NCBI RefSeq assembly: GCF_041886205.1
Contig: NZ_CP169029.1
Length of the DNA stretch: 64,000 nucleotides
Direction: 5' to 3' (one strand)
Source: Escherichia coli
Lineage (GTDB): Bacteria > Pseudomonadota > Gammaproteobacteria > Enterobacterales > Enterobacteriaceae
The notes beneath the pieces are model-generated. The model saw only the letters and a program-made list of their open reading frames with translations, was not told the origin of the DNA and did no database searches. Every line of letters starts with the position of its first letter. Position 1 is the first letter of the stretch. Positions 25,995-44,704 of this stretch are shown here, in pieces. The position numbers were made by a program, and so were the translations under genes.

Positions 25995-26067
25995 TACATT
26001 TGAGCCGGCCCCTTGAAACGCCAGACAGTGGATGTATCTTAAAATAAGAGATAGGCTTGGATATATG

Positions 26068-26424: not shown

Positions 26425-26459
26425 CGCATGCGCCCTTGTTGCCAACGGACAAGGAATAA

Positions 26460-27225: not shown

Positions 27226-27330
27226 CATCCTCATGGTGCCTTGGTTATCTCTCACCGAGGGAATATCAACGTCACTCGGTAACGTTAACTTAAGCTCAAC
27301 GGCTGTCTGGATATAGTGGTTCAAGGGCAC

Positions 27331-27487
27331 CTAAGGGCCTTATTTACGGTGTTTTCGCTGATTGGTTTACGCGGGTCATGTGCTCCCGTAAAGACCAGAC
27401 CATTTTCAACTGCCCATGTCTGAAGTTTTATCAGTATGGCTACAGCCTGTTTGCTGAGTGGCACAAGATGTGGTGTTCGCATCTTAT
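27331..27487 (-). pseudogene. Internal fragment of a P4-type integrase gene
   Basis: ~155 bp at ~93% identity to 43341-43497 within the intact integrase, same orientation. Confidence 0.7.
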
Positions 27488-27692
27488 GGATTCACCATTA
27501 TAGTGACATGTTCAAGATGATGATATATCTTTGAAAAGTGTTCTCTTTGCGAACGGTATAGAATTTCTAGCGTTACTTTTCATAATTACACTTTTTAGGG
27601 TTAGGCAGGCACAATCTATGCGCTGTCTTAGATAACTACATCCATTTTTACTGGACTACCACCAACAAAAATTTAGTGGTGCAGGAGAAAAC

Positions 27693-30600
27693 GTGAAGTA
27701 TCAGATAGTAGGTGGTGCTGGCCTGCACCGCAGCGAAACCAAAACAGTTGATATGATGGTTAAGCAGTTACCAGATAGTTGGTTTGGCTATGCTGGCTTA
27801 GTTGTTACTGATAGCCAAGGGTCGATGGAAATCGATATGCTAATTATTACTGCTGACCGTCTGCTATTAGTCGAGCTTAAAGAGTGGAATGGTAACATCA
27901 CATTTGAAGGGGGGAAGTGGCTGCAAAATGGTAAGTCACGAGGCAAAAGTCCCTATCAGATCAAGCGTGAGCATGCACTGCGACTAAAAGATTTGTTGCA
28001 GGAAGAGTTATCTCGTAAGCTGGGTTACTTTTTGCATGTTGAGGCTCATGTAGTGCTGTGTGGCACAGCTGGTCCTGAAAACTTGCCATTAAGTGAGAGG
28101 CGCTATGTTCATACCCGTGATGAATTCTTGACTATAGGTAACCCAAAAAATTACGAAAAGCTGGTGCAACACACTAACTTTTTTCATCTTTTTGAAGGGG
28201 GAAAGCCTCGACCAAATTCTGATGAGGCATTACCTATAATTAAGTCCTTCTTTGAAGGACCAAAAGTCAGGCCTTTGCCACTAAAAGAAAGCGGTTATCT
28301 TGCGAACGATAAGCCATTCTTTAGTCACCCTCACATGGTCTACAACGAATTCAGGGCTACCCACAAAGACAATAGTCAACACAGAGGTCTGCTACGGCAG
28401 TGGAACTTTGATGCCTTGGGTGTAGCAAACGCAATGCAAACATTGTGGGCTGAGATAGCTCTGCGTGAGACTCGAGTCGGTCGCCTAGTTCGTCATGGCA
28501 GCGCAACTATGCAGGATTATATGTTGCGTGCTGTAAGGGAACTATCCGAGGAGGATATAACTGATGATGCCCGTGAGCTGTATGAGTTACGCCGTAGTTT
28601 TAGCCGATTAGATGAGATTCTAGATAGCGAAGCTGACGGATGGAGTAAATCTGAGCGTATTGATCGCGTTCGTGCATTATTAGCTCCATTCTCGGAATTA
28701 CATAGCTTGGGTATCAGTCATTGTGATATTGACCCGCACAATCTATGGTACGCAGGGGATCAGAAGAGCATTGTCGTTACTGGCTTTGGCGCAGCCTCAC
28801 TGGAGGGACATAATAGCCTAGAGTCATTGCGTCCGATATTGCAAAGTGCTCCATATATTTTGCCCGAAGATGCTTTTGAAGAAGCAGTTGAGCCCTATCG
28901 CCTAGATGTATTCATGTTGGCTGTAATTGCTTATCGTATTTGTTTTGCAGGTGAATCATTACTGACTCCTGGACAGATGCCTGAATGGAGAGCTCCATTA
29001 ACTGATCCTTTTAGCGGTATTCTAAATAGCTGGTTTGAGCAAGCTCTTAACCTTGAGCCAAGTAAACGCTTTCCACGTGCGGACATAATGCTCAATGAGT
29101 TTAATGCAGCTACTAAGGAACATAGCCAAGAATTTGATGAAGCTAACCAGATTTATCAAGAATTAAAGCAAAACAAATTCTTTCGCGAAGGGATGAACAG
29201 CGTTGGTGTGTTAATTGAGTTTCCTCCACTTCCTGAACAGTTGTCTATGGTTTACTCTGCTCTTGCTGCTATTGCTACGACTGGCAGCATCAGTTATCAC
29301 TGTGAACAAGGTGGGAAAGCTCTGCAGGTAAAATTGTGGGATGGTGTTATTTTGACCCCTCAACAACCTGGTGTTAACCGCCGTATCCACGCTTTTAAGC
29401 AACGGATCGATAAGCTTACGCATATAAATCTGCCAACTCCTAAGGTGCAGTCCTATGGACTATTAGGACAAGGCGGCTTGTATGTAGTGAGCGAGTATGT
29501 GGATGGCCTACCGTGGTCACAGTTTATTGCTGAGAACGTGTTAGTACAATCCCAACGTTTTACAATTGCGGAAAAGTTGATCAACACCATTCATGCTTTT
29601 CATGAAAAGCAGTTACCTCATGGAGATCTTTGCCCAGAGAAACTGCTGGTACAAGTCGGGGAGCAGACAGTAATTACTCTGATTGGATTGCTTGAATTCA
29701 GTGATGAATTAACTGCAGATAATCGCTACCAGCCAGAGAATCCCGAAAGTACTGATGCTTTTGGGCGAGATTGCTTTGCAGTATATCGTATGGTGGAGGA
29801 GCTATTTAGTGAAGATATGCCAGTACTGGTGCAGGCTGAGCTAGAACGCGCAAAACAAACCGTTGACGGTATACCTATCGCGCTCGATCCTTTGCTGCAG
29901 TCAATTCGAGCACCGGAACAAGCTGAGATTAATCAAGTTGTGGCGTCTGAGTCACAGGATAAGGTAATTCCTGTTTGCTGGGGCACAGATGATTGGCCGC
30001 AAGAAGTGAAGCTTCTAGAACAAAATGATGGGATCTATTATTTTCAATGTAACTGGTCATCGAACCCACGCTTTGCGCATGAATTGCGTTGTTACATCAC
30101 TGGCCTAGGAGAGCGGCTATTGATAGACTTAGATCCTGATAATCGCACTATTAATAGAATAGTGTATGAAAAAGGATTATCGATCGAAGAAAGTATAAAG
30201 GCTGGTAAATATTCCCAGGCTAAAATTAATACTCAACTTTCATTACAACGTGGCTCACTTAATCAGCGTAATACTTTTATTGAACTACTGTTTAACCTCG
30301 AGCCAGTAATTGATGCCATCATTGAGCGAGCTAATCCTAATCAAGAGATGGATGAAGATGACTTCGATAGTAGTGAGTCAAGCCCAATTGAGTTATGGCA
30401 GGCATTATCTGATACAGAAGTAGACCTACGAGATATAGTCAACATCGACTCTACTGACTTTCAGGAATCACCGAGTGGTTGCTTACTCTACCCATATACT
30501 ACGGAATCCGGTGCTGACCTCAGCTTTGAACTTGATGATAAGATCATTGTTTATATTAAAGATAAGCGTGAATCAGTGCAATTAGGGGAATTGCAGCTAA

Positions 30601-32651
30601 GTGAGACTACGCCGAGTCTATTGGCTATTCGCTTTGATTTTGATGCTGCTCGTAAGCGAATTAGTAGCGGCAGCCAGCTACAATTGGAATCGATCCGTGA
30701 CAAATCATCAAGAGAGTTGCGTCAAAGAGCCCTTCAACGGGTAATTGAAAACAAAGCAGAGATCCAGCATCTGCCACAGTATTTTGATTACCACCAGAAA
30801 CCCTGCATGCAGCAAATGCAACCGCGGCCATCCGCGGAGACATTACGCGCACTTTATGATCAGCCTGGACAACGTTTTAATGAACAGCAGCTAATGGCAT
30901 TTCAACAGTTGGTCGAGTTTGGACCAGTTGGAGTTCTGCAGGGACCACCTGGAACAGGTAAAACAACATTTATTTCAAAATTTATTCACTATCTGTATCA
31001 ACATTGCGGTGTGAATAACATTCTTTTGGTCGGGCAATCCCATGCCTCTGTTGATAATGTAGCCATCAAGGCTCGAGAGCTCTGCCATACGAAAGGAATG
31101 GAACTGGATACAGTACGTATTGGTAATGAACTTATGATTGATGAGGGTATGCTAAGTGTTGCAACTAAAGCTCTTCAGCGACAGATTCAGCATAAATTTC
31201 ACCGTGAATATGATCTGCGAGTTAGCTCCCTAGGAAAGCGCCTAGGGATGGCCCCATTATTAGTCCAACAGTTATGTCAGTTACATCGTACGCTGAATCC
31301 CTTGATGGTGACATATGGCCAATATAGCCGTGAGCTGGATAAAGTAGAACAAATAAAGAGTAGTAGTATTAGTCATCAAGAGCGACTGGCTGAATTATTA
31401 GAACAAAGCAATCAGCTTAAACTGCGAACACAAGAAATTATTAACTCAATATTCGATGACAGCTTGCTGAAAACTCTTGTCTATGATGAAACCTTGATAA
31501 GACAGTTGGCTGAGCAAGTTGCCATACAATACAATTATAACAATCCAGAGAACCTTGAACGTTTTATGCAGCTATTGGAAATGAGCCAAGAGTGGATGGA
31601 TGTATTACGCGGCGGCGAGGCTGGATTTGATCGATTTATGTTCAAAAGTAAGCGATTGGTTTGTGGAACTCTTGTTGGTGTTGGGAATCGTCGACTAGAA
31701 CTAGCTGAGTCCAGCTTTGATTGGGTAATAGTTGATGAGGCTGGCCGAGCACAAGCTGCTGAATTGATGGTAGCGCTGCAATCAGGCAAGCGGGTGCTGT
31801 TGGTAGGGGATCATAAACAATTGCCACCATTCTATCATCAACAGCATCTTAAGTTAGCCTCTAAGAAATTAGAACTCGGGAAAGGGATCTTTTATGAGTC
31901 TGATTTTGAACGTGCTTTTAAAGCAACAGGCGGCGTAACACTCGATACTCAATATCGAATGGTAGAACCAATTGGCGAGTTAGTATCGGAGTGCTTTTAC
32001 GCTCAAGATATCGGTAAACTGCATTCATCGAGGAAAGTCTCGCCAGATTGGTATTCCAAGTTACCAATCCCTTGGAACAAAACTGTTACTTGGATCGATA
32101 GTTCGAGCCCTAATGAAGCAGGTGCAGAAGAACATAAGGGTAATGGTCGTTACTATAATCAACGAGAAGTCCGGCTACTGCTAGAGGCTTTGCAGTCATT
32201 GTCGAGTGATGGCTGCATTGCACAGCTTGAGCAAACTATTACCACAGAACAGCCATATCCTATTGGTATAATCACAATGTATCGTCAGCAAAAAGAGGAA
32301 ATTGACAATGCTATCAGTCGGGCTGAATGGGCTGCATCGTTACGTGGTTTGATCAAGATCGATACCGTTGATTCATATCAGGGCCATGAAAACAAGATAA
32401 TTATCCTCAGTCTGGTTCGCGATAATCCCAACAAACTACAAGGTTTCCTGCGCGACGCGCCGCGAATAAACGTTGCTATTTCGCGAGCTCAAGAAAGGTT
32501 ATTGATTCTGGGAGCAAGGCGTATGTGGTCAAAGACCAATAATGATTCAGCACTTGGAAACGTTCATGAATTTATTAGTAAACAGGTTGCAGTAGATGAA
32601 CCCAACTACCAAATCCTGTGTGGTCAAAGTCTGCTTGGAGATAACAACTAA
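27693..32651 (+). CDS. 1652-aa multidomain protein: N-terminal NERD-like domain, two protein-kinase-like domains, C-terminal SF1 (Upf1/DNA2-like) helicase
   Basis: GTG start with AGGAG RBS; NERD-like EIDMLIITADRLLLVELKEW; kinase-like HCDIDPHN...TGFG...DVFMLAVIAY and HGDLCPEKLLV...DAFGRDCFAVY; helicase Walker [10 protein letters not shown], Walker B VIVDEAG, motifs LVGDHKQLPP, DSYQGHE, VAISRAQERLLILG. Confidence 0.8.
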   Translation: MKYQIVGGAGLHRSETKTVDMMVKQLPDSWFGYAGLVVTDSQGSMEIDMLIITADRLLLVELKEWNGNITFEGGKWLQNGKSRGKSPYQIKREHALRLKDLLQEELSRKLGYFLHVEAHVVLCGTAGPENLPLSERRYVHTRDEFLTIGNPKNYEKLVQHTNFFHLFEGGKPRPNSDEALPIIKSFFEGPKVRPLPLKESGYLANDKPFFSHPHMVYNEFRATHKDNSQHRGLLRQWNFDALGVANAMQTLWAEIALRETRVGRLVRHGSATMQDYMLRAVRELSEEDITDDARELYELRRSFSRLDEILDSEADGWSKSERIDRVRALLAPFSELHSLGISHCDIDPHNLWYAGDQKSIVVTGFGAASLEGHNSLESLRPILQSAPYILPEDAFEEAVEPYRLDVFMLAVIAYRICFAGESLLTPGQMPEWRAPLTDPFSGILNSWFEQALNLEPSKRFPRADIMLNEFNAATKEHSQEFDEANQIYQELKQNKFFREGMNSVGVLIEFPPLPEQLSMVYSALAAIATTGSISYHCEQGGKALQVKLWDGVILTPQQPGVNRRIHAFKQRIDKLTHINLPTPKVQSYGLLGQGGLYVVSEYVDGLPWSQFIAENVLVQSQRFTIAEKLINTIHAFHEKQLPHGDLCPEKLLVQVGEQTVITLIGLLEFSDELTADNRYQPENPESTDAFGRDCFAVYRMVEELFSEDMPVLVQAELERAKQTVDGIPIALDPLLQSIRAPEQAEINQVVASESQDKVIPVCWGTDDWPQEVKLLEQNDGIYYFQCNWSSNPRFAHELRCYITGLGERLLIDLDPDNRTINRIVYEKGLSIEESIKAGKYSQAKINTQLSLQRGSLNQRNTFIELLFNLEPVIDAIIERANPNQEMDEDDFDSSESSPIELWQALSDTEVDLRDIVNIDSTDFQESPSGCLLYPYTTESGADLSFELDDKIIVYIKDKRESVQLGELQLSETTPSLLAIRFDFDAARKRISSGSQLQLESIRDKSSRELRQRALQRVIENKAEIQHLPQYFDYHQKPCMQQMQPRPSAETLRALYDQPGQRFNEQQLMAFQQLVEFGPVGVLQGPPGTGKTTFISKFIHYLYQHCGVNNILLVGQSHASVDNVAIKARELCHTKGMELDTVRIGNELMIDEGMLSVATKALQRQIQHKFHREYDLRVSSLGKRLGMAPLLVQQLCQLHRTLNPLMVTYGQYSRELDKVEQIKSSSISHQERLAELLEQSNQLKLRTQEIINSIFDDSLLKTLVYDETLIRQLAEQVAIQYNYNNPENLERFMQLLEMSQEWMDVLRGGEAGFDRFMFKSKRLVCGTLVGVGNRRLELAESSFDWVIVDEAGRAQAAELMVALQSGKRVLLVGDHKQLPPFYHQQHLKLASKKLELGKGIFYESDFERAFKATGGVTLDTQYRMVEPIGELVSECFYAQDIGKLHSSRKVSPDWYSKLPIPWNKTVTWIDSSSPNEAGAEEHKGNGRYYNQREVRLLLEALQSLSSDGCIAQLEQTITTEQPYPIGIITMYRQQKEEIDNAISRAEWAASLRGLIKIDTVDSYQGHENKIIILSLVRDNPNKLQGFLRDAPRINVAISRAQERLLILGARRMWSKTNNDSALGNVHEFISKQVAVDEPNYQILCGQSLLGDNN

Positions 32652-34198
32652 TGTCAGAACCACGTCTGGGTAATCTGATTACCGTTTTACTACCTGCGCG
32701 TAGTTACAAGATCAACTGCGCTTTGACCACTGAAAAACTGATGCCTGGAATTGAACAGTTTGCATGTCGCTTGCTGCTGATTTTTGATCAACTCTATCCC
32801 AGCGAGTTACAGAATTACTTTGGTCTAACTGATCGTGAGCGAGAGGTATTGCTTGATGGGTTGCTGGCTAACAGACTGATCAACATTAATCCTGATGGGC
32901 ATATTGAGGCTAGCTCATTCCTACGTAAGCATGCAGCTAATAATGGTGGGAAGCCAAGTTTAGTTAAATATCAAGAATGTACGGAGGAAGTTGCATTCGA
33001 TCTACTAACTCTTTCGATATGTAAACCGCAACCAAATCGTCGTTTTACTTCTGGACTGCCAGAGCTATTGCCGCGGCATCAGATCGGGGGAGATGCTGCT
33101 GCGGTAACAGAGGCTTTTAGTTCCCAGTTTAGGCACCATCTTTTGCTCAGCCGCAACAGCGAGTATGAGCGTCAACGGACTAAATTATATAAGATAATGG
33201 GCTGTAGTTCGCATGAGATGGTGCAGCTCCCAATAGAGATAGAGGTTAGCTACGGTGTTTCTGCTGGGAGCATTGAGCCGCAGAAATTTACTCGTTCCTA
33301 TGAATATTTAGGTAACACCCGGCTGCCGCTTTCAAACGAGCTGGAAGCTCATATCGCAGATTTTTTGGGAGAACATAAACTAGATGAATTCGGTATCGAC
33401 TGTGAAGATTTCTGTAAACTAGCAAATGATAAAGTGTTGTTACAATTTGCTAATGGTTATAAGTTCAACTATTCCGGCTGGATAGAGGCTCGTGAACAAC
33501 GTAAAACTGGCTACGGTACTTCATTGACTACCGGCATGTTAGGGGCTGTTTATTTGCCGCACAATTCTAAGCTGTTCATTAGTATGTTGCATAATGCATT
33601 ACGTGATTATATAGGTAAAACAGCTCCAAAAGCGCTGTGGTATAGCAGTAAAGTACCACTGTGGGGAGCTAATGGTAGTCAACTTTCGCGTTTTACTCGC
33701 GCTCTAGGCGATATACTTGGCAATTATGCCGATGATAAGATTGCTCGCATTTCGCTTTTACACTCAAGTGCAGATGAAGGTGAAAAACGTCAAGAGCGTA
33801 AGCGGCACTTAGGTCGTTTTCCTACCGGTATTGGCCTTACTTCAGAGGCTAAATTTGATCGTTTGGAGATCCTCTTAATTCCTGATGTGATTGCTTTGGT
33901 GCAATACCACGGTCAACCTAATTCTGATAGTGCATTAACCCTGCCGATTGGTTATATAACTGTTGAGCCAGAGCGTTTAGAATTACTTAAAAAACTAATG
34001 ATTAAGCGAACTGAAGGGGCTGTTGCAACCATTACTTGGTCTGAATCAAAATTTGAAAATTTAGCTTCGCTATTACCTGTTGAGTTTCTGATTAAACTGA
34101 ATAAGAAAAGCGGTGAAGATGTGGATGCTGCAATAAAAAAAATGCAGATCTATAACCGTGCTGAAACCGCACGGGCAATTTTATCGCTACGCAAGTAG
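32651..34198 (+). CDS. 515-aa protein of unknown function, translationally coupled to the upstream gene
   Basis: Start ATG overlaps the upstream TAA (TAATG); no recognisable motifs. Confidence 0.6.
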   Translation: MSEPRLGNLITVLLPARSYKINCALTTEKLMPGIEQFACRLLLIFDQLYPSELQNYFGLTDREREVLLDGLLANRLININPDGHIEASSFLRKHAANNGGKPSLVKYQECTEEVAFDLLTLSICKPQPNRRFTSGLPELLPRHQIGGDAAAVTEAFSSQFRHHLLLSRNSEYERQRTKLYKIMGCSSHEMVQLPIEIEVSYGVSAGSIEPQKFTRSYEYLGNTRLPLSNELEAHIADFLGEHKLDEFGIDCEDFCKLANDKVLLQFANGYKFNYSGWIEAREQRKTGYGTSLTTGMLGAVYLPHNSKLFISMLHNALRDYIGKTAPKALWYSSKVPLWGANGSQLSRFTRALGDILGNYADDKIARISLLHSSADEGEKRQERKRHLGRFPTGIGLTSEAKFDRLEILLIPDVIALVQYHGQPNSDSALTLPIGYITVEPERLELLKKLMIKRTEGAVATITWSESKFENLASLLPVEFLIKLNKKSGEDVDAAIKKMQIYNRAETARAILSLRK

Positions 34199-34412
34199 CA
34201 TTTATATTGCAACGAATAAATTTTTCTAGGTTGCTATGAACTAGCTAAAGGGCAACAAATAGATAAACGGCGTTATTCATGTCAAATGAGATAATGTTAA
34301 ATTGATAGGGATTTATACCCCGCCGGCCATTTTGAATGGTCGGAGTTGTTATAAACGTTAAACCGCCCCGGAAATCCTGGAGACTAAACTCCCTGAGAAA
34401 GAGGTAAACAGG

Positions 34413-34739
34413 ATGACTAAAAATACACGTTTTTCCCCCGAAGTCCGTCAACGGGCAGTTCGTATGGTTCTGGAAAGTCAGGGCGAATATGACTCACAAT
34501 GGACAGCAATTTGTTCTATTGCCCCTAAGATTGGCTGTACACCGGAGACTCTGCACGTCTGGGTACTCCAGCATGAGCAGGATATTGGGGGCGGTGATGG
34601 TGGTTTCACCACCACTGAACGTCAGCGTCTGAAAGAGCTGGAACGTGAAAATCGTGAACTGAGCCGCAGTAACGATATCCTTCGCCAGGCTTCCACTTAT
34701 TTTGCGAAGGCGGAGTTCGACCGCCCCTGGAAAAAATAA
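34413..34739 (+). CDS. IS3-family OrfA (IS629-like)
   Basis: 108 aa; MTKNTRFSPEVRQRAVRMVLESQGEYDSQW. Confidence 0.8.
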   Translation: MTKNTRFSPEVRQRAVRMVLESQGEYDSQWTAICSIAPKIGCTPETLHVWVLQHEQDIGGGDGGFTTTERQRLKELERENRELSRSNDILRQASTYFAKAEFDRPWKK

Positions 34740-35112
34740 TGCCACTGCTGGATAAGTCGCGTGAGCAGTACGGGATCGGACCGGTATGCAGTGAACTGCA
34801 TATTGCCCCGTCAACGTATTACCACTGTCAGCAACAGCGACATCATCCTGATAAACGCAATGCCCGTGCGCAGCGTGATGACTGGCTGAAGAAAAAGATA
34901 CCGTGCGTATACGATGTGCGTAAAGTCTGGCGTCAGTTGTTTCGGGAAGGTATCAGAGTGGCCAGATGCACTGTGGCACGTCTCATGGCGGTTATGGGGC
35001 TTGTCGGTGTTCTCTGGGGTAAAAGGTCCGCACTACCGTCAGCCGGAAAGCCGTTGCCGTAGACGACCGCGTAAACCGCCAGTTCGGGGCAAAGTCGTGG
35101 GTGGCTGATTTT
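34739..35112 (+). pseudogene. IS629-like OrfB, truncated and frameshifted, interrupted at ...ADFTY by a group II intron
   Basis: OrfB N-terminal homology across two frames, ending at the intron 5' end. Confidence 0.7.
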
Positions 35113-35644
35113 ACTTACGGTGTGCCCGGAGTTCAGGGTGAGCACGGATGCTGAAATGAACCATGAGTCTGTCTGGAATATGGAACAGATAACTCATGAC
35201 GAGAAGCCCAACAATCCCACCGGGTGTGACTGTGGTGAACCTGAGCGACTGTGACCTGCGGCATTCCCTAAGGATGATGTAACCCGCTGACAACGGGGAT
35301 TGAGGCGAGATCACTAAGCCGAGATGATCCTCAAGGTTGAGTGCTGAAAGGCTGAAGAACATGAACCCGTTAATCCGCCTCTGTGGGCTGAAAACGTCAC
35401 CACGGCCTACATGATCTGACAGGTCGTGCAGAAGTAACTGTCTGCGACACGTATGCGCGGGTCAGTCAAAGGTGTTCTGACATGTATGCAAAACACCGGG
35501 ACAGCAACGCCTATCACGCTCACGTTGCTGACTTCTGTCAACTTGCGGCAAGCAAGGACAAAGAGTGCGACGGGCAGCCTCCTCAGTATGTATGAGTTCA
35601 GACAGGTGAACTGGGGAAGGTCAGCGACGGATGTTAAGGAGGCA
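35113..35644 (+). mobile_element. Group II intron 5' fragment (no RT ORF; 3' part missing)
   Basis: Begins GTGTGCCCGG like the intron at 7598; structured GC-rich sequence, no long ORF. Confidence 0.55.
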
Positions 35645-35930
35645 GTAAGCGTCAACGGAGCACCGTATTGACGCTTATTTATTGGTGAGAACTACGTTTC
35701 ATGGCAGGAGTTCGTCAACACGGTTGGATAGTAATGCACGGCTCAGTTCGACACCCTGTCGGGCAAAGATTTCACTCTGACGATACAGTGGCAGGTGTTC
35801 GCAGTATTTTCCCGTTAACACGCGGGCAAGTAATCCGGGGCCGCGATACCACGCTCTATCGGGCAGGACGGCGCCAATGATAGCATTTATACAAGCAATT
35901 CTGGGAGCTTATAGATTGTGTGCAAAACTT
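35645..35930 (-). pseudogene. IS66-family tnpC fragment
   Basis: Minus-strand translation gives [35 protein letters not shown], matching the TnpC core. Confidence 0.6.
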
Positions 35931-36221
35931 TTGATAGCAGGAGGTTACAACAGTATTGATGAAAAAGATCATTCAAATCGATTTATATATTTTGTTAATG
36001 TTATCTGTTTTCAATCTAATAACCACGAATATAGCTAATTATAGGATGATTACTAGTTTTGCTACCCTATCAACCAAACGTTCACCGGACATTAGAAAAC
36101 ATGGAAATTTCTTGTTTTTAAATGCTTTTTACACCAATAGAAAAATTTACATTCCAAAATCATTAGTCTTTGCGTAATCAAAAGATGTAATGGTTTTTTT
36201 CCTTACTACTTCTAGATAATC

Positions 36222-36345
36222 CGCCCACTACAGCAACATCAACTTACGCTCATCTAAATGCTCCGCCTTATGGATATAAGCTACCCGCACTGAATTACAT
36301 TCCATGCGGCTCATCAGACGTCCAGTTGCTTTACTGTCTTCAGGG
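36222..36345 (-). pseudogene. 3' remnant of a second P4-type integrase gene
   Basis: Minus-strand translation ...MSRMECNSVRVAYIHKAEHLDERKLMLL* is homologous to the intact integrase C-terminal region; ~70% nucleotide identity. Confidence 0.6.
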
Positions 36346-36584
36346 GGATGCTCTTGTAATCCCAACCTCTCGTGCTTTCTGAGCATAACACATCCATGTT
36401 GCTGCGATTATCTCTTAAACCCGTCCTTACCATTTTTATTGATACGATAAGGAACCTTCATCATACATGATCGATTTTGTCGATCGATTCGATCGAATTT
36501 TCTCTTTTTACCCTGTCTTTTACATGGTTTTAAAATAAGCACCCCATTTATTGTTCGGGGAAAGTGATAGCAGAGGTAACTGAA

Positions 36585-37313
36585 ATGAAAAAGATTATTG
36601 CGGTTTCAGCACTTGCTGTGGCAGGCATGTTTTCAGCCCAGACCCTGGCTGATGAGAGCAAAACAGGCTTTTATATGACCGGTAAGGCGGGAACTTCCGT
36701 TTTATCTCTTTCCAACCAGCGTTTTGTCGAAGGTGAAGGAGAGTGGGCGGACAGATACAAAGGTGACGATGACCATGATACGGTATTCAGTGGCGGTATT
36801 GCGGCCGGTTATGATTTTTATCCGCAGTTCAGTATTCCGGTTCGTACAGAACTGGAGTTTTACGCTCGTGGAAATGCTGACACGAAATATAATCTTTATA
36901 AAGACGACTGGTCGCGTGGTGACCTGAAGAACGAGGTGTCAGTCAACACTCTGATGCTGAATGCGTACTATGACTTCCGGAATGACAGCTCATTCACACC
37001 ATGGGTATCTGCAGGGATTGGCTACGCCAGAATTCACCAGAAAACAACCGGTATCAGTACCTGGGATTACGGGTATGGATACAGTGGTCGTGAATCGTTG
37101 TCACGTTCAGGCTCTGCTGACAACTTCGCATGGAGCCTTGGCGCGGGTGTCCGCTATGACGTCACCCCGGATATCGCTCTGGACCTCAGCTATCGCTATC
37201 TTGATGCGGGTGACAGCAGTGTGAGTTACAAGGGCGAGTGGGGCGATAAATATAAATCAGAGGTTGATGTTAAAAGTCATGACATCCTGCTTGGTGTGAC
37301 TTATAACTTCTGA
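36585..37313 (+). CDS. Outer-membrane beta-barrel protein (signal peptide, C-terminal ...GVTYNF)
   Basis: N-terminal signal peptide MKKIIAVSALAVAGMFSAQTLA; alternating amphipathic strands; terminal aromatic residue. Confidence 0.6.
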   Translation: MKKIIAVSALAVAGMFSAQTLADESKTGFYMTGKAGTSVLSLSNQRFVEGEGEWADRYKGDDDHDTVFSGGIAAGYDFYPQFSIPVRTELEFYARGNADTKYNLYKDDWSRGDLKNEVSVNTLMLNAYYDFRNDSSFTPWVSAGIGYARIHQKTTGISTWDYGYGYSGRESLSRSGSADNFAWSLGAGVRYDVTPDIALDLSYRYLDAGDSSVSYKGEWGDKYKSEVDVKSHDILLGVTYNF

Positions 37314-37488
37314 CGACACTGCTTCTGAATGATAATTGCGCATATTTCTGCAATTAAGATAATTACGTATTTCTGTAATTAAAAAGGAACACCCTGCAGT
37401 AATATTATACTGCAGGGTTGTCTGTTATCTGCTTTACAGGATATTTCTGATTTTTATTATCTTATTCTCTTTATATTAAGATATTTCG

Positions 37489-38988
37489 ATGAGTATCATA
37501 AAACTATTTTTTCCGGACAATACATCCCGAATTTTATTGTTTTTATTCTTTTTTGTTGTTTCTGTCATAACCACAATTGCATGCGGATACACTGAGAAGA
37601 ATACCACCGGGAATGTGTTGCTGCTGTTCTTTCTTCTGCTTCTTGCACACAGAAATACCCTCACATCCATTACAGCGCTGTTATTTCTGTTCTGTTGTGC
37701 ACTGTATGCGCCTGCCGGTATGACGTACGGTAAAATCAACAACAGTTTTATTGTCGCGTTGTTGCAGACCACGGCTGATGAGGCAGCGGAGTTTACCGGG
37801 ATGATTCCTGTTTATCATTTTCTGGTCAGTGCCGCGATTCTGGTATTCATGGTGATTTTCTGGCGAACACACCACCGCGGTCACCGTAACTGGCTGGCAC
37901 TGCTGCTATTCGTATTATGCTCTGTAAACAGCTGGCCGTTGCGGATGGTTAAAGGAACCGTTGTGGGGACAACTGACACATTGCGTGAAATGCAGCGTTA
38001 TAAACAACTGAGTCAGCACGGGGCTGACAGCTGGAAAATCCTGCCGGGTGTACCGTTGTATGACACGATTGTTATTGTTACTGGTGAGAGTGTGCGCAGG
38101 GATTATATGTCGGTATATGGCTATCCCGTGCCAACCACACCGTGGCTGAATACTGCTCCCGGTTTATTTATTGACGGCTATACATCGGCAGCAGCCAGTA
38201 CCGTACCTTCCCTGAGCCGGACACTGATTTATGACTATGAGCAGAACCCTGATTCCGGCAACAACGTGGTGGCGCTGGCAGCAAAATCAGGATACAGCAC
38301 ATGGTGGATATCCAATCAGGGAAAACTGGGAGAGCATGACACACGCATCTCTGTTATTGCTTCTGATGCGGAGCATACCGTTTTCCTCAAGAAAGGCAGC
38401 TTCGCTTCCCGTAAAACGGATGATATGTTGTTGTTACAGGAAACAGAACGTGCGCTGGCGGATACATCCTCTCCGAAGGTGATTTTCCTGCACATGATTG
38501 GCTCTCATCCGAATCCGTGTGACCGACTTAACTCCTGGCCGAATCATTACCTGGAGCAGTATCCCCGAAAGATTGCCTGTTACCTCGCCAGCATCAGTAA
38601 ACTGGATAACTTTCTCGGTCAGCTTGATGGTATCCTTCGCCGGCATTCCCGTCATTTCGCCATGCTTTACTTTTCTGACCATGGACTGTCGGTCAGCGAC
38701 AGCGCTAATCCTGTTCATCATGATGGTCATGTGCAGGGAGGCTACAGCGTTCCCCTGATTATTACCGCCAGTGACATCACGTCTCATCAGTCCGTCAGCA
38801 GAAAAATCAGTGCCCGTCATTTCGCAGGTATTTTTCAGTGGCTGACCGGCATTCGTACTGAAAATATACCGCCATTCAATCCGCTGACAGACGAAGATAA
38901 TGAACCCGTTATGGTTTTTAACGGGGAGAGGAATGTACCGGCAGACAGTCTGAAACCGCAGCCTCTGATTCTTCCGGACAGAAGATAA
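37489..38988 (+). CDS. Phosphoethanolamine-transferase-family (sulfatase superfamily) membrane protein
   Basis: N-terminal TM helices; motif VIVTGESVRRDYMSVYGY...TSAAASTVPSLS typical of EptA/MCR-like enzymes. Confidence 0.65.
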   Translation: MSIIKLFFPDNTSRILLFLFFFVVSVITTIACGYTEKNTTGNVLLLFFLLLLAHRNTLTSITALLFLFCCALYAPAGMTYGKINNSFIVALLQTTADEAAEFTGMIPVYHFLVSAAILVFMVIFWRTHHRGHRNWLALLLFVLCSVNSWPLRMVKGTVVGTTDTLREMQRYKQLSQHGADSWKILPGVPLYDTIVIVTGESVRRDYMSVYGYPVPTTPWLNTAPGLFIDGYTSAAASTVPSLSRTLIYDYEQNPDSGNNVVALAAKSGYSTWWISNQGKLGEHDTRISVIASDAEHTVFLKKGSFASRKTDDMLLLQETERALADTSSPKVIFLHMIGSHPNPCDRLNSWPNHYLEQYPRKIACYLASISKLDNFLGQLDGILRRHSRHFAMLYFSDHGLSVSDSANPVHHDGHVQGGYSVPLIITASDITSHQSVSRKISARHFAGIFQWLTGIRTENIPPFNPLTDEDNEPVMVFNGERNVPADSLKPQPLILPDRR

Positions 38989-39096
38989 TCATGTCGGTAT
39001 GAATGTTATAATTAAGGACCGTGCAATAATAGCCATTCCATTCAGCCATCTTACGCTCGAAAACAATCGATAAGATGGCTACTCACCATTCCTGCT

Positions 39097-42000
39097 CTAA
39101 ACCTGACGCCTCTCAAGACTATTATAAATAGCCTCAATCTCACCCTTCAGGTTATCACCGCAATAAACCATTGAGGTATCGTATCGTTCATATCGCGCTT
39201 CCCGTGTCGCACTAAACCAGTTGAACGATCCCACGCACAGCAAACCATCATCACCAATAACAATTTTGCTATGAACACGGTTTACCAGCTTTGTAGCAAT
39301 ACCCAGCGCATTCAGTTTCTCCAGCGCCGCTTTAAAGTTTTGCTGCTTCTCTTTTCGCTTCTCAAAATCATTATGTTCAGTGTTGTAGCTTCTGTCAGTG
39401 ACTATCGTGACGTTAATTCCACGTGAACACGCCGCAATCATGGAATCAAGAAAACCTGTTTGCTCCAGCCTTTGCCAGGTCAGCCATGGAGAAACTATCG
39501 TGATGTGTTTACTGGTATTTTCAAATGTCTGATTCAGGAAATTATCATGTTGCTCCACACCATGAAGTGTGTAGATTTTGGTCCCGGAGGTTTTTAAATC
39601 CTTACGCTCTTTATAATCAAAAGAGAGCGCATTCTTCTCTGACTCAAAGAGGTATTTTGCCAGTAATCCCCGTGGAGATGAGGCTGGCTGGACCTCAAAC
39701 AGGTCCATATCGCCGAAGACCAGAAAACTGTCCTTCGCACGGGAGACTGCAACATTCAGCATGCTGTTATCGCTATCAATAAACCCGCCGTCTTCATGTT
39801 TTGAATAGACTGGCGAGAATATCACAATCGCTCTTTCCGCTCCCTGAAGAGAGTGCACGGTGCCCACTGTGAGCGACTTTTCATTCGAGCCTGTACTGAT
39901 ACCTTGTTTGCCCAGCGCCTGTTTGATAGTGGATACCTGAGCGCTAAAAGGCGTCACGATACCGACAACTTCATGAAGCGATTTACCGTAATGCGCTTCA
40001 ATATTTTGTTGGTTCTCTGCCAACCAGACCGCTATCGTTTCAGCCTCAAGCAAATTATATCGACTTCCACTACTTGCCAGCTCTCCTTTACCATCAATAT
40101 GGAGATACCCCATTGCGGGCATTAAATTGCTCTCTTCACGCCCTCTTTTAGGCAACAACTTACCGTGATAGCAGAGCGTATTACAGTATCCAATAATATT
40201 GTCGTAGCACCGGCGGTGTTCATATAGGGACATACCACGAGCCAGTTCGGGATCATATTGATAGCGCGAAGCAAACTGCGCTATTTTCATAACGCTGCCA
40301 GATGCGGCACTTTTACCAAGGTCTGCGATTGCCGTATATTTCTCGGTAATCTCTTCTTGCGTACTGCCAGACAGAATTTTTTCCGCCAGCATGTTACCGA
40401 CATCAATCGCAGGAGCAATACTCCATATTGGCGGGAGCTGCTCCGTATCGCCAATCACTAATGCCTTCTTAGCTAATGCAAACGAGGCAGCAGCCACTTC
40501 AGGAAGCACCTGCCCGGCTTCATCGACAATGAGTAAATCGGCAAAATCATACAAATAACTTTTCTCGAATTTACGCTGTCCTTTGTGCTCACTTATCTGC
40601 ATATTGCCGGGCAGCATATAGCATGTCATCACCACACATGGAGTGAGTTTCATTCGACGTTGCCAACGGGCAGTTACCCCTTTAGCGCCTTTTTTCTTCT
40701 TCTCTTCCTGCAGATCATCAATGCTGGCCATATCCATCAGCCAACGACCTTCCCAGTAGTGAGTCGTCAGTAAAAATGCAGGGAAGCGAATCTGCGTATC
40801 AGCCAGTTCATCGGCCTGTGAGAAGCTCAGTTCCTCGTCGCCCTCATACCCTAAATTAAGAGCCAGTCTCTGCCACTCCTGAACCGCCTGCTGTTCTTTA
40901 AGAATGATTTCATGGGCGGAATCAATCTGCTGCCGGTATGTTGTTTGCTCGCGCTCAGCGGAATTGAGCAGCCCATCAATATTACGTTCGATAGTTTCAG
41001 GATCAGACCACTGATTTCCTGCAATCAGCGCACCTAATTTATCTTCGAGAAACAGCTGTATTTGGTACTGTCGCTTACTGCGAACCACCGGGAGCCAGGA
41101 AAATAATGAATAGATCAGTGATTCACCGGCGCGATATTTTTTCCATTCCGTTTTAGCACTTTTCAGTAGAGTGATTTTTTGTTCTTGTCCGGAAAGTAAT
41201 TTATTTAAATTATCGAGATATTGCTCAATGTCGTTAGCAATAAGCTCACGCGCAGCCCGTACCTGGCTTAACGTTTGCCATGTTGCGTTCAGTCTTATCA
41301 GTTGCTCGGATTTTGCTGCCAACTGACCATGCAGGAGTTCAATGACCTTTTCAGGGGATGAACAATCTTTTTCAGGAAAGGCTGCCTTAGCCTTCTCCAG
41401 ATAAAACAGCAGTGCATCCTCTACATACTCTTTTGACTCAACCTGGTTGAAGAAATCTTCAGTTTGATATTTTTTGGCTGCCTCAGCTTTACGAGTGCTT
41501 GAGGGAAAATAAGCGCCGAAGCTTTTCAGCTCAGGTAACCATCGTCCGGCCATTGCACCAGTGCCCTGTGAAAAATCTTTCCCGAACGCTTCGATAATGT
41601 TCGTTACAGCCTGGTTGTTCGTTGAAGTCGCGATAATTACCGGAGGCTCAGATTTTTCGAGAGCCGCTCTGGCCCACTGCGTGGCGATGATAGAAAGCAC
41701 CAGCGTGGTTTTTCCGGTTCCCGGAGGTCCATTAACAGCAAGGATATCGCCATGTCTTGCATCCAGAAAATGGCTTAAGGCATCGCGCTGAGCCTTTGCC
41801 AGCGGAAACTTATCTCCGGAGTGTCCAAGCCTGTCGCTGAATTTTGCGCCTGGGGCCAGCAAAGACTCTGCAGCATGAACCTCTCGCGAGGCGAAGCGAT
41901 TGAAGAGCGGCACAACCTTCTTGCAAACAAGCAGGTGATCATAAAGAGAAAGGATATGGAAACAGGCACCGCCAGATTGCGCCGTTTTAACAATATAACC

Positions 42001-42612
42001 GTGCTCAGCGAGTTCATATTGCTCAGGATTTTTAATCCAGTCGCCGGCAACGTTCTTCAGCAGCCTCTCTGAATCATCCAGATATTGACGCCACTCCTGC
42101 TGCAAGGCTGCATATCGTGCTTCCCGTTCTTCATCCGTTTCGGCAGTCTTATCAATGCCGTCATCAAAGTTGATAGAGAACGAGGTATGGATTGTCTTGT
42201 ATTTGTCATACTGCCCAATCTCACCAATCGAAAATGCTCCTTTTGGCAAAGGTTCAAGCAGGTCTCTGGGAATGGAGGTCGCTGGCGTCGGATATAAAAA
42301 ACCCTCACGGCTTAGCAAGGCTGGCGTCACTATCGGGGTAACAATATCAGGCGCGCCTGCGGAACGGTCCTTACCATGCTGCAGTAACCGGAAATAAACT
42401 TTTGGGCGCAAGATGACATCGACCGTTTCGACATCGTCTTTTTCTCCCTTAAAAAATTTACTGACAATCGCTTCGTCAAGACGTCCCGCCGCTATCCCAT
42501 GCCAGTGAGTGAAATTTTTGGCGTCTTTCCGTTCAAAACTGCCCTTTCCTGACTCAGCATCCGCAAGCGAGTTGCGCCAGTATGAGGTAAACCCTAAAGC
42601 ATTTTCATCCAT
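39097..42612 (-). CDS. SF1 helicase fused to C-terminal PLD-family nuclease domain (Mokosh type II-like)
   Basis: 1171 aa; Walker [10 protein letters not shown], Walker B LIVDEAGQ, helicase motifs; C-terminal HxK-x4-D-x6-GSxN ([20 protein letters not shown]). Confidence 0.7.
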
Positions 42613-42665
42613 TACCAGTCCTGTGACTCAATGAAATCCATTGATTTATCGAATATAAAACCACC

Positions 42666-42689
42666 ATATGGACAACTATTGTCCATATT
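42666..42689. promoter_or_regulatory. Palindrome ATATGGACAA-CTAT-TTGTCCATAT upstream of the helicase-PLD gene
   Basis: 10-bp perfect arms, 4-bp spacer, ~55-75 bp upstream of the start at 42612. Confidence 0.4.
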
Positions 42690-43063
42690 GAAAAAATTGG
42701 ATGCAATGTTTTGTTTATAATTCGATATCAAATGTACTGGTTGTACAAGGTTCAGAACACAAGCACATTCAACAGTACGTCAGGACTATTGATTTCATAA
42801 CAGTGAATACATTTTTTACCGTTTATAATGACTGCCTGTGTTGGACAAGGATACCAGAACAGCCGAAAACACCGGGGGTTATTACCTGCTCTCATGGAAA
42901 CCAGATATTCCTGGTGCTAATCACAGTCATAAATAGCCTGAAGAACATGACGAAGGGACTTTAATGGACGCCGGAGTAACTTGCCAGAACATCAATCTTC
43001 GTCATCATTTACAAAGAAAAATAATCAGTTAAAGCAGTCCGGGCTGATTGCCCGGACTGCTTA

Positions 43064-44326
43064 CTATTTTAATGGATTGTTAATTTTTGCATATTCAAAC
43101 GGACTGATACCCTTCTCCCGGTTCGCATCCAGAAAATCGGCCCACCATTGCAACATCAGTCGCCGTTCTTCCAGATGTTCTGCTTTATGGATATACGCAG
43201 CACGTACACCATTACGCTCCTGATGGCTCATCTGACGTTCCACAGCATCGCGGGACCACAAACCTGATTCAATCAATGCACTGCACGCCATCGCCCGGAA
43301 TCCATGGCCACAGACATCCTGGGTTGTGTCATACCCCATCACCCTCAGGGCTTTATTTACAGTATTTTCACTGATTGGTTTACGCGGGTCATGTGCTCCC
43401 GTAAAGATCAGACCATTTTCACCAGCCCATGTCTGTAGTTCTGCCAGTATGGCTACAGCCTGTTTGCTGAGTGGCACAAGATGTGGTGTTCGCATCTTGG
43501 AGCCCCGGTGTGAGAATTTTACGCCAGGCAGAGGTTCGCGTTCGGCTGGAATAGTCCACATGGCATTGTCAATATCAATTTCAGACCAGCGGGCGTATCT
43601 GAGTTCACTGGAACGAATAAAAACCAGTAAATTCAGCATAACTGCCAGTCGGGTGACAGGCTGGCCTTTATAACCGTCAATACGCGACAGAAGTTCAGGC
43701 AGGCGTGAAAGATCCAGTGCAGGGCGATGCTGGCGTTTTACCGTGGTCAATGCACCAGCCATATCCAGAGCCGGGTTATATCTGATGATGCCAGACTGTA
43801 CGGCATAACGCATTACAGCAGATATTCTTTGCTGCAGACGACTGGCGATTTCATAAATTTGTTTAGCTTCTGCAGCACGAACAGGGATAAGCAGGTCCGG
43901 GGTACTGAGTGTTGTGATATCCCGGTTGCCGATAAAGGGGAAAACGTGTGTCTCGAGGCTTTTGAGTACTTTATCGCTGTGTGATTGTGCCCATTGTTTA
44001 TTACTGGCATGCCAGCGTCGTGCAATATGTTCAAAAGAGAGTTGTAAATCAGGGACTACTTTTTTAGCTCTTTTCAGTTCGCAAGGGTCAATCCCCTCCG
44101 AAATCAGTTTTCGGGCCTCATCCCGTTTTGTACGAGCTTCGGAGAGAGAAACTTCTGGATACACACCAAGTGCCAGAGTCTTCTCCTTACCCAGAATACG
44201 ATAACGGAGACGCCAGTAACGGGAACCATTAGGATGAACCAGTAGGAACATGCCAGCCCCGTCAGTGAGTTTATAAGCCTTGTCAGTGGGCTTTGCAGCC
44301 CGGATTTTTGCGTCAGTCAGTGCCAT
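43064..44326 (-). CDS. int: Tyrosine recombinase, P4-type integrase
   Basis: Starts MALTDAKIRAAKPTDKAYKLTDGAGMFLLV...; C-terminal catalytic region; adjacent to tRNA-Phe 3' end. Confidence 0.9.
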   Translation of the reverse strand: MALTDAKIRAAKPTDKAYKLTDGAGMFLLVHPNGSRYWRLRYRILGKEKTLALGVYPEVSLSEARTKRDEARKLISEGIDPCELKRAKKVVPDLQLSFEHIARRWHASNKQWAQSHSDKVLKSLETHVFPFIGNRDITTLSTPDLLIPVRAAEAKQIYEIASRLQQRISAVMRYAVQSGIIRYNPALDMAGALTTVKRQHRPALDLSRLPELLSRIDGYKGQPVTRLAVMLNLLVFIRSSELRYARWSEIDIDNAMWTIPAEREPLPGVKFSHRGSKMRTPHLVPLSKQAVAILAELQTWAGENGLIFTGAHDPRKPISENTVNKALRVMGYDTTQDVCGHGFRAMACSALIESGLWSRDAVERQMSHQERNGVRAAYIHKAEHLEERRLMLQWWADFLDANREKGISPFEYAKINNPLK

Positions 44327-44493
44327 AGTATAGCCTTCTGAATGCGTTAAAGAGGGTACAAATTCTGTCGAACTGGGGTATGCCCGCAATTATACCCACA
44401 CAATGGGGTTGATGTGGGGGGAATCTGGTTGAGTTCGGTAGAATTGATTTGTAGGTAGAACGCTTAAATTGTGGCGTTCTGAAACGAAAAACG

Positions 44494-44518
44494 GACCTCC
44501 GTGGAGGTCCGTTGATAT
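44494..44518 (-). terminator. Hairpin + T-run immediately downstream of tRNA-Phe
   Basis: GGACCTCC-ACGG-GGAGGTCC stem followed by TTTTT on the minus strand. Confidence 0.55.
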
Positions 44519-44523
44519 GAATT

Positions 44524-44599
44524 TGGTGCCCGGACTCGGAATCGAACCAAGGACACGGGGATTTTCAATCCCCTGCTCTACCGACTGAGCTATCCGGGC
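44524..44599 (-). tRNA. pheV: tRNA-Phe (GAA)
   Basis: 76-nt match to the canonical E. coli tRNA-Phe including CCA end; location next to yqgA and speC. Confidence 0.95.
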
Positions 44600-44704
44600 A
44601 ACGGGGCGCATTAAACCTGATTCGCCTCGTCTCGTCAATCAAATTTCTTCAATTTACTGCAGACTGCACAATCTATCATCACTTTGCCGCTATTGCACGC
44701 ATTG

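Follow-up and report, generated by a model that had tools for sequence, protein, structure and literature searches.

Integrase scars in a mosaic tRNA-Phe island of Escherichia coli that probably entered pheV as a ready-made block

The pheV Site and Its Integrase

The window, i.e., the complete 64-kb stretch of E. coli DNA analyzed here, contains a tRNA-Phe gene with yqgA and speC on either side, which identifies the site as pheV. The region considered comprises the 17 kb closest to the tRNA gene in a large, mosaic, integrase-only island that belongs to the known GI-pheV/GI-pheU kind. Position 1 of the window falls within cdiA, and the distal end of the island lies beyond it. At the tRNA end, the following features are found:

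44524-44599, minus strand: tRNA-Phe(GAA), pheV copy (ARAGORN)
44524-44546: attL core of the island, the 3′ 23 nt of the pheV tRNA
43064-44326, minus strand: intP4, an intact P4-type tyrosine integrase of 420 aa
43343-43498, minus strand: segment of the intact integrase that is repeated in scar r1 (156-bp direct repeat, 92%)

The integrase gene is located immediately 3′ of the tRNA gene on the same strand, with its start codon at 44326 and the 3′ end of the tRNA at 44524. The longest open reading frame reaches 44389, where it would start with a TTG codon (441 aa). It is the sole complete recombinase in the array. The 420-aa protein contains an N-terminal arm-type DNA-binding domain (PF13356, Arm-DNA-bind_3, E 4e-29), a central domain (PF22022, Phage_int_M, E 3e-27), and a C-terminal catalytic domain (PF00589, Phage_integrase, E 1e-16). 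Its identity to the integrase of phage P4 (X51522/NC_001609 int) is 55% over 97% of the protein (E 4e-152). However, none of the P4 replication or capsid-hijack genes (α primase, psu, delta, sid) is found beside the integrase, and the interval up to scar r2 contains only the genes for MkoC, a phosphoethanolamine transferase, and an outer membrane protein (OMP). This gene content is not that of a P4-like phage satellite.

Cargo Modules and Backbone

Reading away from the tRNA gene, a Mokosh type II system lies next to the live integrase, a Mokosh type I system between two integrase scars (r2 and r1), and a type III CBASS block past r1:

39097-42612, minus strand: MkoC, single-gene Mokosh type II, helicase + PLD (PADLOC PDLC03924, 1684 bits, full length)
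37489-38988, plus strand: ept, phosphoethanolamine transferase, conserved backbone (RefSeq annotation)
36564-37313, plus strand: Tia/Hek-like outer membrane β-barrel protein, conserved backbone (RefSeq annotation of homologues)
36159-36329, minus strand: r2, C-terminal integrase scar, aa 382-438, with one in-frame stop
35866-36158: segment 3′ of r2, truncated here by an IS66 scrap
34358-35875: decayed IS3-family (IS1203-like) and IS66-family scraps between the Mokosh I block and r2
27693-34198, plus strand: Mokosh type I system, mkoA + mkoB (PADLOC)
27693-32651, plus strand: mkoA, NERD + Ser/Thr kinase + Upf1-like helicase (PADLOC MkoA PDLC03921, 1304 bits, full length)
32651-34198, plus strand: mkoB (PADLOC MkoB PDLC03923, E 1e-61, full length)
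27330-27485, minus strand: r1, internal integrase scar, aa 298-349
26032-27329, plus strand: frameshifted IS3-family transposase pseudogene, truncating r1 on its 3′ side
19907-25451: type III CBASS block, distal to r1 (PADLOC, RefSeq annotation)

Mokosh type I consists of a kinase + Upf1-like helicase protein and a separate PLD protein, and type II of a helicase-PLD fusion (bioRxiv 10.1101/2022.05.11.491447). The products of mkoA/mkoB and mkoC conform to these definitions, respectively, and are predicted to act against phages. In PADLOC, the C-terminal part of MkoC also matches other PLD-containing models (MkoB, DrmC), and the kinase region of the type I system also matches PD-T4-6 models. The CBASS block encodes a nucleosidase/TIR-type effector, a WYL regulator, a cyclase, HORMA and TRIP13 proteins, and an exonuclease effector. 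Thus, all three blocks are predicted anti-phage modules. The reverse-transcriptase reading frames at 8003-9294 belong to a frameshifted group II intron maturase and were rejected as a defense reverse transcriptase.

MkoC is located in an optional insert (~38981-43038) between the integrase and ept; in strain E62, which lacks it, homology to the window ends at 38980 and restarts at 43039. The NCBIfam matches of Ept are of the CptA/EptA type and all below cut-off. The gene is shared with E62 and Ec-FL1-1X at 93%, and the region upstream of the Tia/Hek-like gene, from 36368 onward, is found in more than 1000 genomes at ~82%.

Two Integrase Scars of Different Origin

The initial annotation reported two integrase fragments inward of the intact pheV integrase and in the same orientation. 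Searches with the integrase against the 64-kb window by BLASTN and TBLASTN bear this out (best E-values of 1e-61 for r1 and 5e-16 for r2), with adjusted limits. The fragment given as 27331-27487 at ~93% identity is real, with BLASTN limits of 27330-27485 and 92.3%. The second, given as 36222-36345, is also real, but the true remnant extends ~60 nt further toward the 3′ end, and homology stops at ~36330. The next-best matches in the window have E-values of at least 0.02 for DNA and above 1 for protein; hence, neither scar is a chance match, and the fragments are not equally similar to unrelated sequence. Both are already annotated by RefSeq as integrase pseudogenes in a nearly identical island of strain ZYB39.

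In scar r1, 156 nt correspond to 43343-43498 of the integrase gene, and the final 54 nt of this direct repeat show no differences. At the protein level, r1 covers aa 298-349 of the 441-aa reading frame (92% identity, E 9e-26) on the same strand as intP4, and various intP4 alleles are 92-95% identical to it. Its left end adjoins the IS3 pseudogene. Its right breakpoint, CGCATCTT|ATGGATTC, is fused to a position 208 nt upstream of mkoA and is nucleotide-identical in four strains, and 68 other genomes contain r1 with both flanks.

Scar r2 is far more divergent, with 59.6% amino-acid identity over 36159-36329, again on the strand of intP4, and a BLASTN match at 70% over 36211-36321. The region of the tyrosine motif AYIHKAEH is retained. 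The 60-aa peptide of r2 gave nothing but short, uninformative fragments in a word-indexed protein search, and a distant DNA search was used in its place. Of the full-length genes, the one closest to r2 is that of the pheV integrase in strain CP53 (82% at the nucleotide level). The scar with both flanks is present in 13 other genomes, and its truncation junction is homologous even in an allele that is only 82% identical. In 12 other genomes, the segment 3′ of r2 runs into a Druantia type I system. The closest full-length genes to r1 and r2 are tRNA-Phe integrases, and r1, r2, and intP4 are genuine P4-type integrase DNA from three distinct tRNA-Phe lineages.

Since the scars cover non-overlapping parts of the protein, they could be imagined as the halves of one integrase gene split by insertion of Mokosh I. 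However, their order is wrong for a gene on the minus strand, with the C-terminal r2 at higher coordinates than the internal r1; they have diverged unequally from the resident gene (92% nucleotide vs. 60% amino-acid identity); and each of them is present in many genomes where the other is missing. Order and orientation, divergence, and independent distribution thus refute this explanation, leaving it with virtually no chance of being correct.

The Island Was Probably Transferred as a Whole

The search for internal attachment sites used 23-, 18-, 16-, 14-, and 12-mers from the 3′ end of the tRNA, with mismatches and indels tolerated, as well as BLAST with the whole spacer between tRNA and integrase. 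The window contains no second copy of the 23-mer with up to 3-5 mismatches or indels, and only chance 10-12-mers. No internal att site is present across the whole 92-kb island of ZYB39 or in 12 related loci, and none of the scars in the window or in those 12 loci has an att relic next to it. A composite island would be expected to combine two or more co-oriented integrases (genes or remnants) at one tRNA gene, which are found here, with internal direct repeats of the att core between its units, which are absent from the window, from ZYB39, and from the other loci.

Positions 1-44647 of the window are 99.9-100% identical, apart from IS insertions, to an island of ZYB39 that resides not at pheV but at pheU, where it lies between dicD-pheU and cadC. 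As these are the normal neighbors of pheU, a chromosomal inversion between pheU and pheV was ruled out as the cause of the difference. In ZYB39, a single att pair bounds ~92 kb, scars included. The one attR is degenerate, TTCGATTCCGAGTCCGG-CACCA, and is also found in wlxctx60; it is the imperfect attR listed for many GI-pheV (PMC11537424). The integrase proteins of the two islands are 100% identical. That an identical island resides at pheU in ZYB39 and at pheV here is consistent with att × att recombination by IntP4.

The chromosomal context differs from that of ZYB39. The 13.4-kb flank beside the island of the window is 100% identical in strain wlxctx60, whereas the 25 best matches to this flank do not include ZYB39, which reaches at most 98.8%. 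According to mismatch maps, the switch in ancestry lies inside 44456-44618, tRNA included. A composite of at least 44.6 kb thus appears to have been mobilized as a whole between strains that do not match closely in their pheV flanks. The 162-bp crossover interval at the tRNA would fit integrase-mediated integration and homologous recombination in the tRNA plus a conserved arm equally well. Either way, the best-supported reading of these comparisons is that the island entered the pheV site of this strain as one ready-made block. Its particular combination of modules was found in 1 of 5426 complete genomes.

These data bear on the history proposed in the initial annotation, which, taken at face value, would have three islands integrate serially into this pheV and both older integrases decay on the spot, each at the head of its own cargo. 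The same orientation of all integrase sequences would agree with such a history, as would the order of integrase remnant followed by cargo when reading away from the tRNA, and the G+C content, which varies between the blocks. Nevertheless, the literal serial reading is not supported, because the complete array, scars too, is one contiguous block within a single att pair at pheU of the unrelated strain ZYB39, the very pattern that the initial annotation had named as speaking against its reading. Moreover, wlxctx60 contains a different, 18-kb GI-pheV despite its identical flank, the scar breakpoints are common to 13-68 genomes with other neighbors, and the cargo beside each scar varies between strains. 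Serial integration at this very locus is, therefore, highly improbable; the wider idea of successive integrations is supported by the three integrase lineages and by relics of accretion in related strains.

Accretion and Exchange of Modules in Related Strains

Depending on the strain, the cargo distal to an r2-type scar is a Druantia system, a type I restriction-modification system, an ept′-nan segment, or IS elements with Mokosh I. Distal to r1, a CBASS block, IS66-T6SS scraps, or MkoC-ept-tia is found, the latter with a longer integrase piece. Hence, the idea that each remnant heads a cargo block of its own does not hold, as the cargo is interchangeable. Strains GF75 and E62, and wlxctx60 in part, have the int-(MkoC)-ept-OMP unit but lack the Mokosh I/r1 unit; in E62, r2 and Druantia come next after int-ept-OMP. 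None of the related loci has the Mokosh I block as an island by itself with an intact integrase of its own. With breakpoints fixed in 68 (r1) and 13 (r2) other genomes, beside other cargo, both scars appear to be old and not to have been made at this locus.

Relics of accretion are seen in two strains. In strain 165, a second, decayed copy of the same ept/int backbone comes after a scrap at the position of r2, and the scrap and ept′ are collinear with the intact backbone. In ZYB39, a further integrase scrap is present just beyond the outer attR, between pheU/attR and cadC; it is a C-terminal remnant (aa 380-441) in the same orientation, presumably the P4-like integrase pseudogene that K-12 carries near cadC. 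It retains an upstream att copy, as a textbook relic of an older occupant would, in contrast to r1 and r2, which have none. A kinship between this scrap and r2 was ruled out, as they show no similarity.

Alternatively, the scars may be debris of IS or cargo insertion, or of recombination, in single integrase genes that was later carried along passively by IS-mediated rearrangements, with no tandem integration involved. In favor of this, the left end of r1 and the region 3′ of r2 are adjoined by IS3 and IS66 scraps, IS elements are known as borders of GI-pheV modules (PMC11537424), and no att relics were found. However, the right breakpoints of r1 and r2 are not at IS ends, and the IS3 pseudogenes around Mokosh I share no similarity with each other, which rules out a composite transposon. 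In addition, the second, decayed backbone copy directly behind the first in strain 165 is what tandem accretion predicts, and in ZYB39 the attR is followed by an older integrase scrap. An origin without tandem integration is, therefore, considered unlikely, albeit less so than serial integration at this locus. Since no internal att relic survives, it is the architecture and the related loci that point to tandem site-specific integration for r1 and r2.

Putative Recombination Between r1 and the Intact Integrase

The 156-bp direct repeat formed by r1 and intP4 brackets both Mokosh systems on a segment of 16 kb. Two strains, each 1 of 5426 genomes, contain joints at this repeat. In Ec-FL1-1X, the 3′ part of the integrase is joined to the right junction of r1. 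In 2017.04.02CC, the IS3 pseudogene and the left part of r1 are joined to the 5′ part of the integrase beside pheV. These joints look like the two reciprocal products of recombination between r1 and the intact integrase. Within the repeat of 2017.04.02CC, a clean change from r1 states to intact-gene states occurs between positions 43 and 55. The repeat of Ec-FL1-1X has intact-gene states through position 101, so that any switch would lie within the invariant last 54 nt, with the common breakpoint as its sole indication. The recombinant reading of 2017.04.02CC is based on ~7 informative sites, and this strain could instead represent a precursor state. To judge from these joints, recombination between r1 and the integrase can probably delete or relocate the 16-kb Mokosh segment.

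The scars have kept ~90-95% identity to live intP4 genes and might, therefore, serve as portable homology cassettes in an int-[slot]-ept-OMP-scar-[slot] scaffold, a description coined here. Recombination with a live integrase would then delete, circularize, or transplant defense modules between pheU and pheV islands. We put this forward tentatively, as a possibility that may well prove wrong; if true, such scars would offer an att-free recombination route for the turnover of defense genes.

Proposed History

The history that best explains the homologies, breakpoints, distributions, lack of internal att sites, and en-bloc identity, and that we regard as probably correct, is one of ancestral tandem accretion, deletion scars, module shuffling, and transfer of the finished composite en bloc into this pheV. 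In an ancestor, related islands built on an int-[slot]-ept-OMP backbone would have been stacked in tandem at a tRNA-Phe gene. Single deletions may then have taken out every internal att site and, with it, the 5′ portion of the older integrase, and further trimming by IS elements would have left two dead scars and units welded together. These old scars would now ride in modules that pheU and pheV islands exchange through homologous and IS-mediated recombination, whilst the single intact IntP4 may move the finished composite as a unit via the outer att pair.

The locus thus illustrates in detail how a large tRNA-Phe island of E. coli may accrete, lose its internal att sites, and then hop as a whole between the two tRNA-Phe genes, which are identical, in unrelated strains. 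For annotators, integrase pseudogenes within an island probably mark ancient seams rather than recent local events, and boundaries should not be drawn there. With respect to phage defense, Mokosh II, Mokosh I, and type III CBASS occupy variable slots around a conserved backbone, and the joints in Ec-FL1-1X and 2017.04.02CC provide natural evidence that scar-to-integrase recombination may remove or move such modules.

Comparison With Known Systems

According to Nhu et al. (2024, PLoS Genet; PMC11537424), insertion, deletion, and recombination add modules to GI-pheV elements and remove them. Like these, the present island has a P4-like intP4 directly 3′ of pheV and mosaic, IS-bounded modules, and its ZYB39 copy also has the imperfect attR; the window stops short of the distal end. 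That account also lists tia and a "putative DNA helicase" near some intP4 alleles. The integrase scars inside the island, its defense content (the word Mokosh is absent from that paper), and the occurrence of the same island at pheU set the present case apart from it.

The island also resembles the integrase-only defense islands that Hochhauser et al. (2023; PMC10121019) described for tRNA hotspots of E. coli, in which defense genes lie beside a "phage integrase" at tRNA loci of variable occupancy, and genes for conjugation or other phage functions are lacking; neither pheV nor yqgA is mentioned in the main text.

Tandem-accretion composites such as ICESt1/CIME (Pavlovic et al., 2004, as cited in PMC4891358) arise when an incoming island inserts next to one already present at a shared tRNA att site, which is the arrangement envisaged here. 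Islands of groups III and XI at asn-tDNA of K. pneumoniae are further composites of this type. Such composites are able to move in one piece, and their parts may have integrases that are not closely related. They usually keep internal att sites and second integrases, whereas here all internal att sites and the 5′ portions of the older integrases appear to have been deleted, so that the units could no longer separate by site-specific recombination. Mosaic GI-pheV and tandem accretion followed by deletion are ordinary, well-known forms of island evolution, and the present case leaves this understanding intact.

Integrase remnants and cargo of the pheV island

The site is pheV, since yqgA, speC, nupG and mltC lie to the right of tRNA-Phe. 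The adjoining intact integrase gene encodes arm-binding, central and catalytic domains, and phage P4 Int is 55% identical to its product across 97% of the length. When this live integrase gene was aligned with the whole window, exactly two further matches were obtained, r1 and r2, both on the same strand, and beyond these only matches at chance level were found. Thus, the integrase remnants reported in the initial annotation are real, with the coordinates of r2 slightly adjusted. Both are already listed as integrase pseudogenes in the RefSeq annotation.

Main features of the island in the window
44524-44599, minus strand: tRNA-Phe(GAA), sole tRNA gene in the window
43064-44326, minus strand: integrase gene, 420 aa, directly 3' of tRNA-Phe
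39097-42612: MkoC (Mokosh type II), between the live integrase and the pair of genes for a phosphoethanolamine transferase (ept) and a Tia-like outer-membrane protein (OMP)
36159-36329, same strand as the integrase: r2, 59.6% amino-acid identity (E 5e-16), aa 382-438, one in-frame stop
27693-34198: MkoA and MkoB (Mokosh type I), between r1 and r2
27330-27485, same strand as the integrase: r1, 92.3% identity over 156 nt (E 1e-61), aa 298-349 of a 441-aa ORF
19907-25451: type III CBASS, distal to r1, with cyclase, HORMA, TRIP13, two effectors and WYL

Defence modules were called by PADLOC, and the Mokosh definitions were checked against the original description. The two Mokosh systems, two versions of one defence family, lie less than 5 kb apart. 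The insert carrying MkoC (~38981-43038, between integrase and ept) is optional: strains E62 and wlxctx60 lack it, and GF75 has a frameshifted version. This pattern points to a slot for defence genes right behind the integrase. Of the two candidate CBASS effectors, one is a 491-aa nucleosidase/TIR-type protein, encoded on the opposite strand, and the other is a 200-aa exonuclease; a WYL-domain protein is also encoded. Directly after the exonuclease gene, in the window's lowest-GC kilobase (0.36), lies a 151-aa ORF (25539-25994) with apparent membrane segments, which matched no PADLOC family. Leftwards of CBASS, the window holds IS elements, a disrupted group II intron and a cdiA 3' end. The intron is represented by two adjacent ORFs (8003-9294) that jointly match a reverse transcriptase/maturase and are frameshifted; RefSeq names one of them merely 'reverse transcriptase domain-containing protein'. 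Positions 1-7556 hold the cdiA 3' end (VENN pre-toxin), then small ORFs and a second toxin/immunity module, which is truncated; the 138-bp sequence at 3654-3791 recurs exactly at 5681-5818, as is typical of orphan cdiA-CT/cdiI arrays. In the chromosomal flank, short repeats (~90-120 bp, 84-87% identity) at 56436-56643 and 60994-61089 are probably intergenic repeats of the REP/BIME type.

The same island at pheU

Positions 1-44647 match strain ZYB39 (NZ_CP098234.1) at 99.9-100% identity across at least 44.6 kb; there, the island is located between dicD-pheU and cadC, i.e., at the other tRNA-Phe gene. Two elements account for all the differences: an IS66 element confined to the window (17235-19932) and an IS100 confined to ZYB39. 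The former is complete (tnpA, tnpB and tnpC), and the latter is inserted in the OMP gene at ~37060 of the window. The ZYB39 island, of ~92 kb, additionally holds F17 fimbriae, Ag43 and a yee module.

The two hosts are not close relatives at the pheV locus: over its 13.4-kb flank, the window matches wlxctx60 at 100% identity, and ZYB39 is not among the best 25 matches to this flank (at most 98.8%). wlxctx60 has a GI-pheV (genomic island at pheV) of its own, which differs: it measures 18 kb, and its integrase is 4% divergent. On mismatch maps, ancestry switches from ZYB39-like to wlxctx60-like somewhere in 44456-44618, the interval that holds the tRNA, as would be expected of integration at att or of recombination within the tRNA. 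This switch shows, therefore, that the scars were already in the island before it entered pheV of the window strain.

Tandem accretion and exchange of cargo

No second copy of the tRNA-Phe 3' end was found in the window, with 3-5 mismatches or indels allowed, and the same search revealed no internal att copy across the whole ZYB39 island. The sole other copy in ZYB39 is a degenerate attR (TTCGATTCCGAGTCCGG-CACCA), ~92 kb from the tRNA. Beyond it lies another integrase scrap and then cadC. This frameshifted scrap (10284-10665 of the locus extract L008; aa 380-441), just before cadC and with an att copy retained upstream, is an older fossil at pheU. An att relic next to a scar was present in 0 of 12 related loci.

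In strain 165, the r2 position is occupied by a scrap (aa 379-441), with a decayed ept gene behind it. Since this pair is collinear with the ept/int backbone of E62 (90% and 89%), which is intact and convergent, it is the remains of a second backbone copy behind the first. The succession of attR and older scrap in ZYB39 is a second example of tandem accretion. Deletions probably erased the seams, each taking out an internal att together with the 5' part of an older integrase. The initial annotation had proposed serial integrations at pheV with decay of the older integrases. Because of the relics in 165 and ZYB39, this idea holds as a general history, but not for events at pheV of the window strain, which the scars predate; it was right in kind and wrong in place and time.

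It had also placed each remnant at the head of its own cargo block, which does not hold, since the distal cargo varies by strain and MkoC is optional. Rather, the remnants are fixed points of the backbone around which modules are swapped.

Cargo distal to the scars
r2-type scar: Druantia (E62); type I R-M (YZMc3-1); ept'-nan (165); IS scraps and Mokosh I (window, ZYB39)
r1: CBASS (window, ZYB39); IS66/T6SS scraps (222, 165); MkoC-ept-tia (Ec-FL1-1X)

Age of the scars and probable recombination of r1

r1 with both flanks was found in 68 genomes, in 64 of them at ≥99% identity. Its right breakpoint lies between CGCATCTT and ATGGATTC, 208 nt upstream of mkoA, and the window, ZYB39, 222 and Ec-FL1-1X all share it exactly. 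The r1 allele occurred within an intact integrase in none of 5426 genomes, the best match being 94.9%. r2 with both flanks was found in 13 genomes, and in 12 of these the matching segment starts at the same breakpoint, e.g., in E62, where the order is pheV-int-ept-OMP-r2-Druantia I, without MkoC. In YZMc3-1, the r2 allele is just 82% identical but occupies the same place beside the OMP gene, with the R-M system distal. As this allele and the window are homologous on both sides of the truncation point, the truncation is older than ~20% divergence. The closest full-length relative of r2 is the pheV integrase of CP53 (82% nucleotide and 65% amino-acid identity), so r2, too, derives from a tRNA-Phe integrase.

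r1 and integrase positions 43343-43498 are direct repeats flanking 16 kb with both Mokosh systems. The two junctions predicted for recombination between them were constructed and searched in all 5426 genomes. The junction of the integrase 3' part with the r1 right junction is contiguous in Ec-FL1-1X alone, where the modules are circularly permuted relative to 27330-43498 and a longer integrase piece survives at r1 (aa 298-441). Mokosh types I and II are adjacent there, in reverse order relative to the window. The junction of the IS3 pseudogene, r1 and an integrase 5' part is contiguous in 2017.04.02CC alone; it adjoins pheV, and on its distal side collinearity with 222 extends as far as the r1 breakpoint. 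Site by site, 2017.04.02CC has r1-specific bases at repeat positions 4-28 and intact-gene bases from position 55, and Ec-FL1-1X has intact-gene bases through position 101, followed by the r1 junction. A single crossover in each strain is the simplest reading, although 2017.04.02CC may possibly be a precursor state instead of a recombinant. The r1 scar appears to be still recombining.

Relation to known islands

According to PMC11537424, GI-pheV is a mosaic of IS-bounded modules, with types defined by intP4 alleles, and its imperfect attR is the same as that of ZYB39. The concept that tandem accretion yields composites able to move as one unit is established (Pavlovic, 2004, as cited in PMC4891358), and defence islands with an integrase only have been documented at tRNA hotspots of E. 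coli (PMC10121019). Specific to the present island are the combination of modules, found in 1 of 5426 genomes, the presence of the island at both tRNA-Phe genes (pheV in the window and pheU in ZYB39), and natural evidence, drawn from junction sequences, for recombination between a scar and an integrase.
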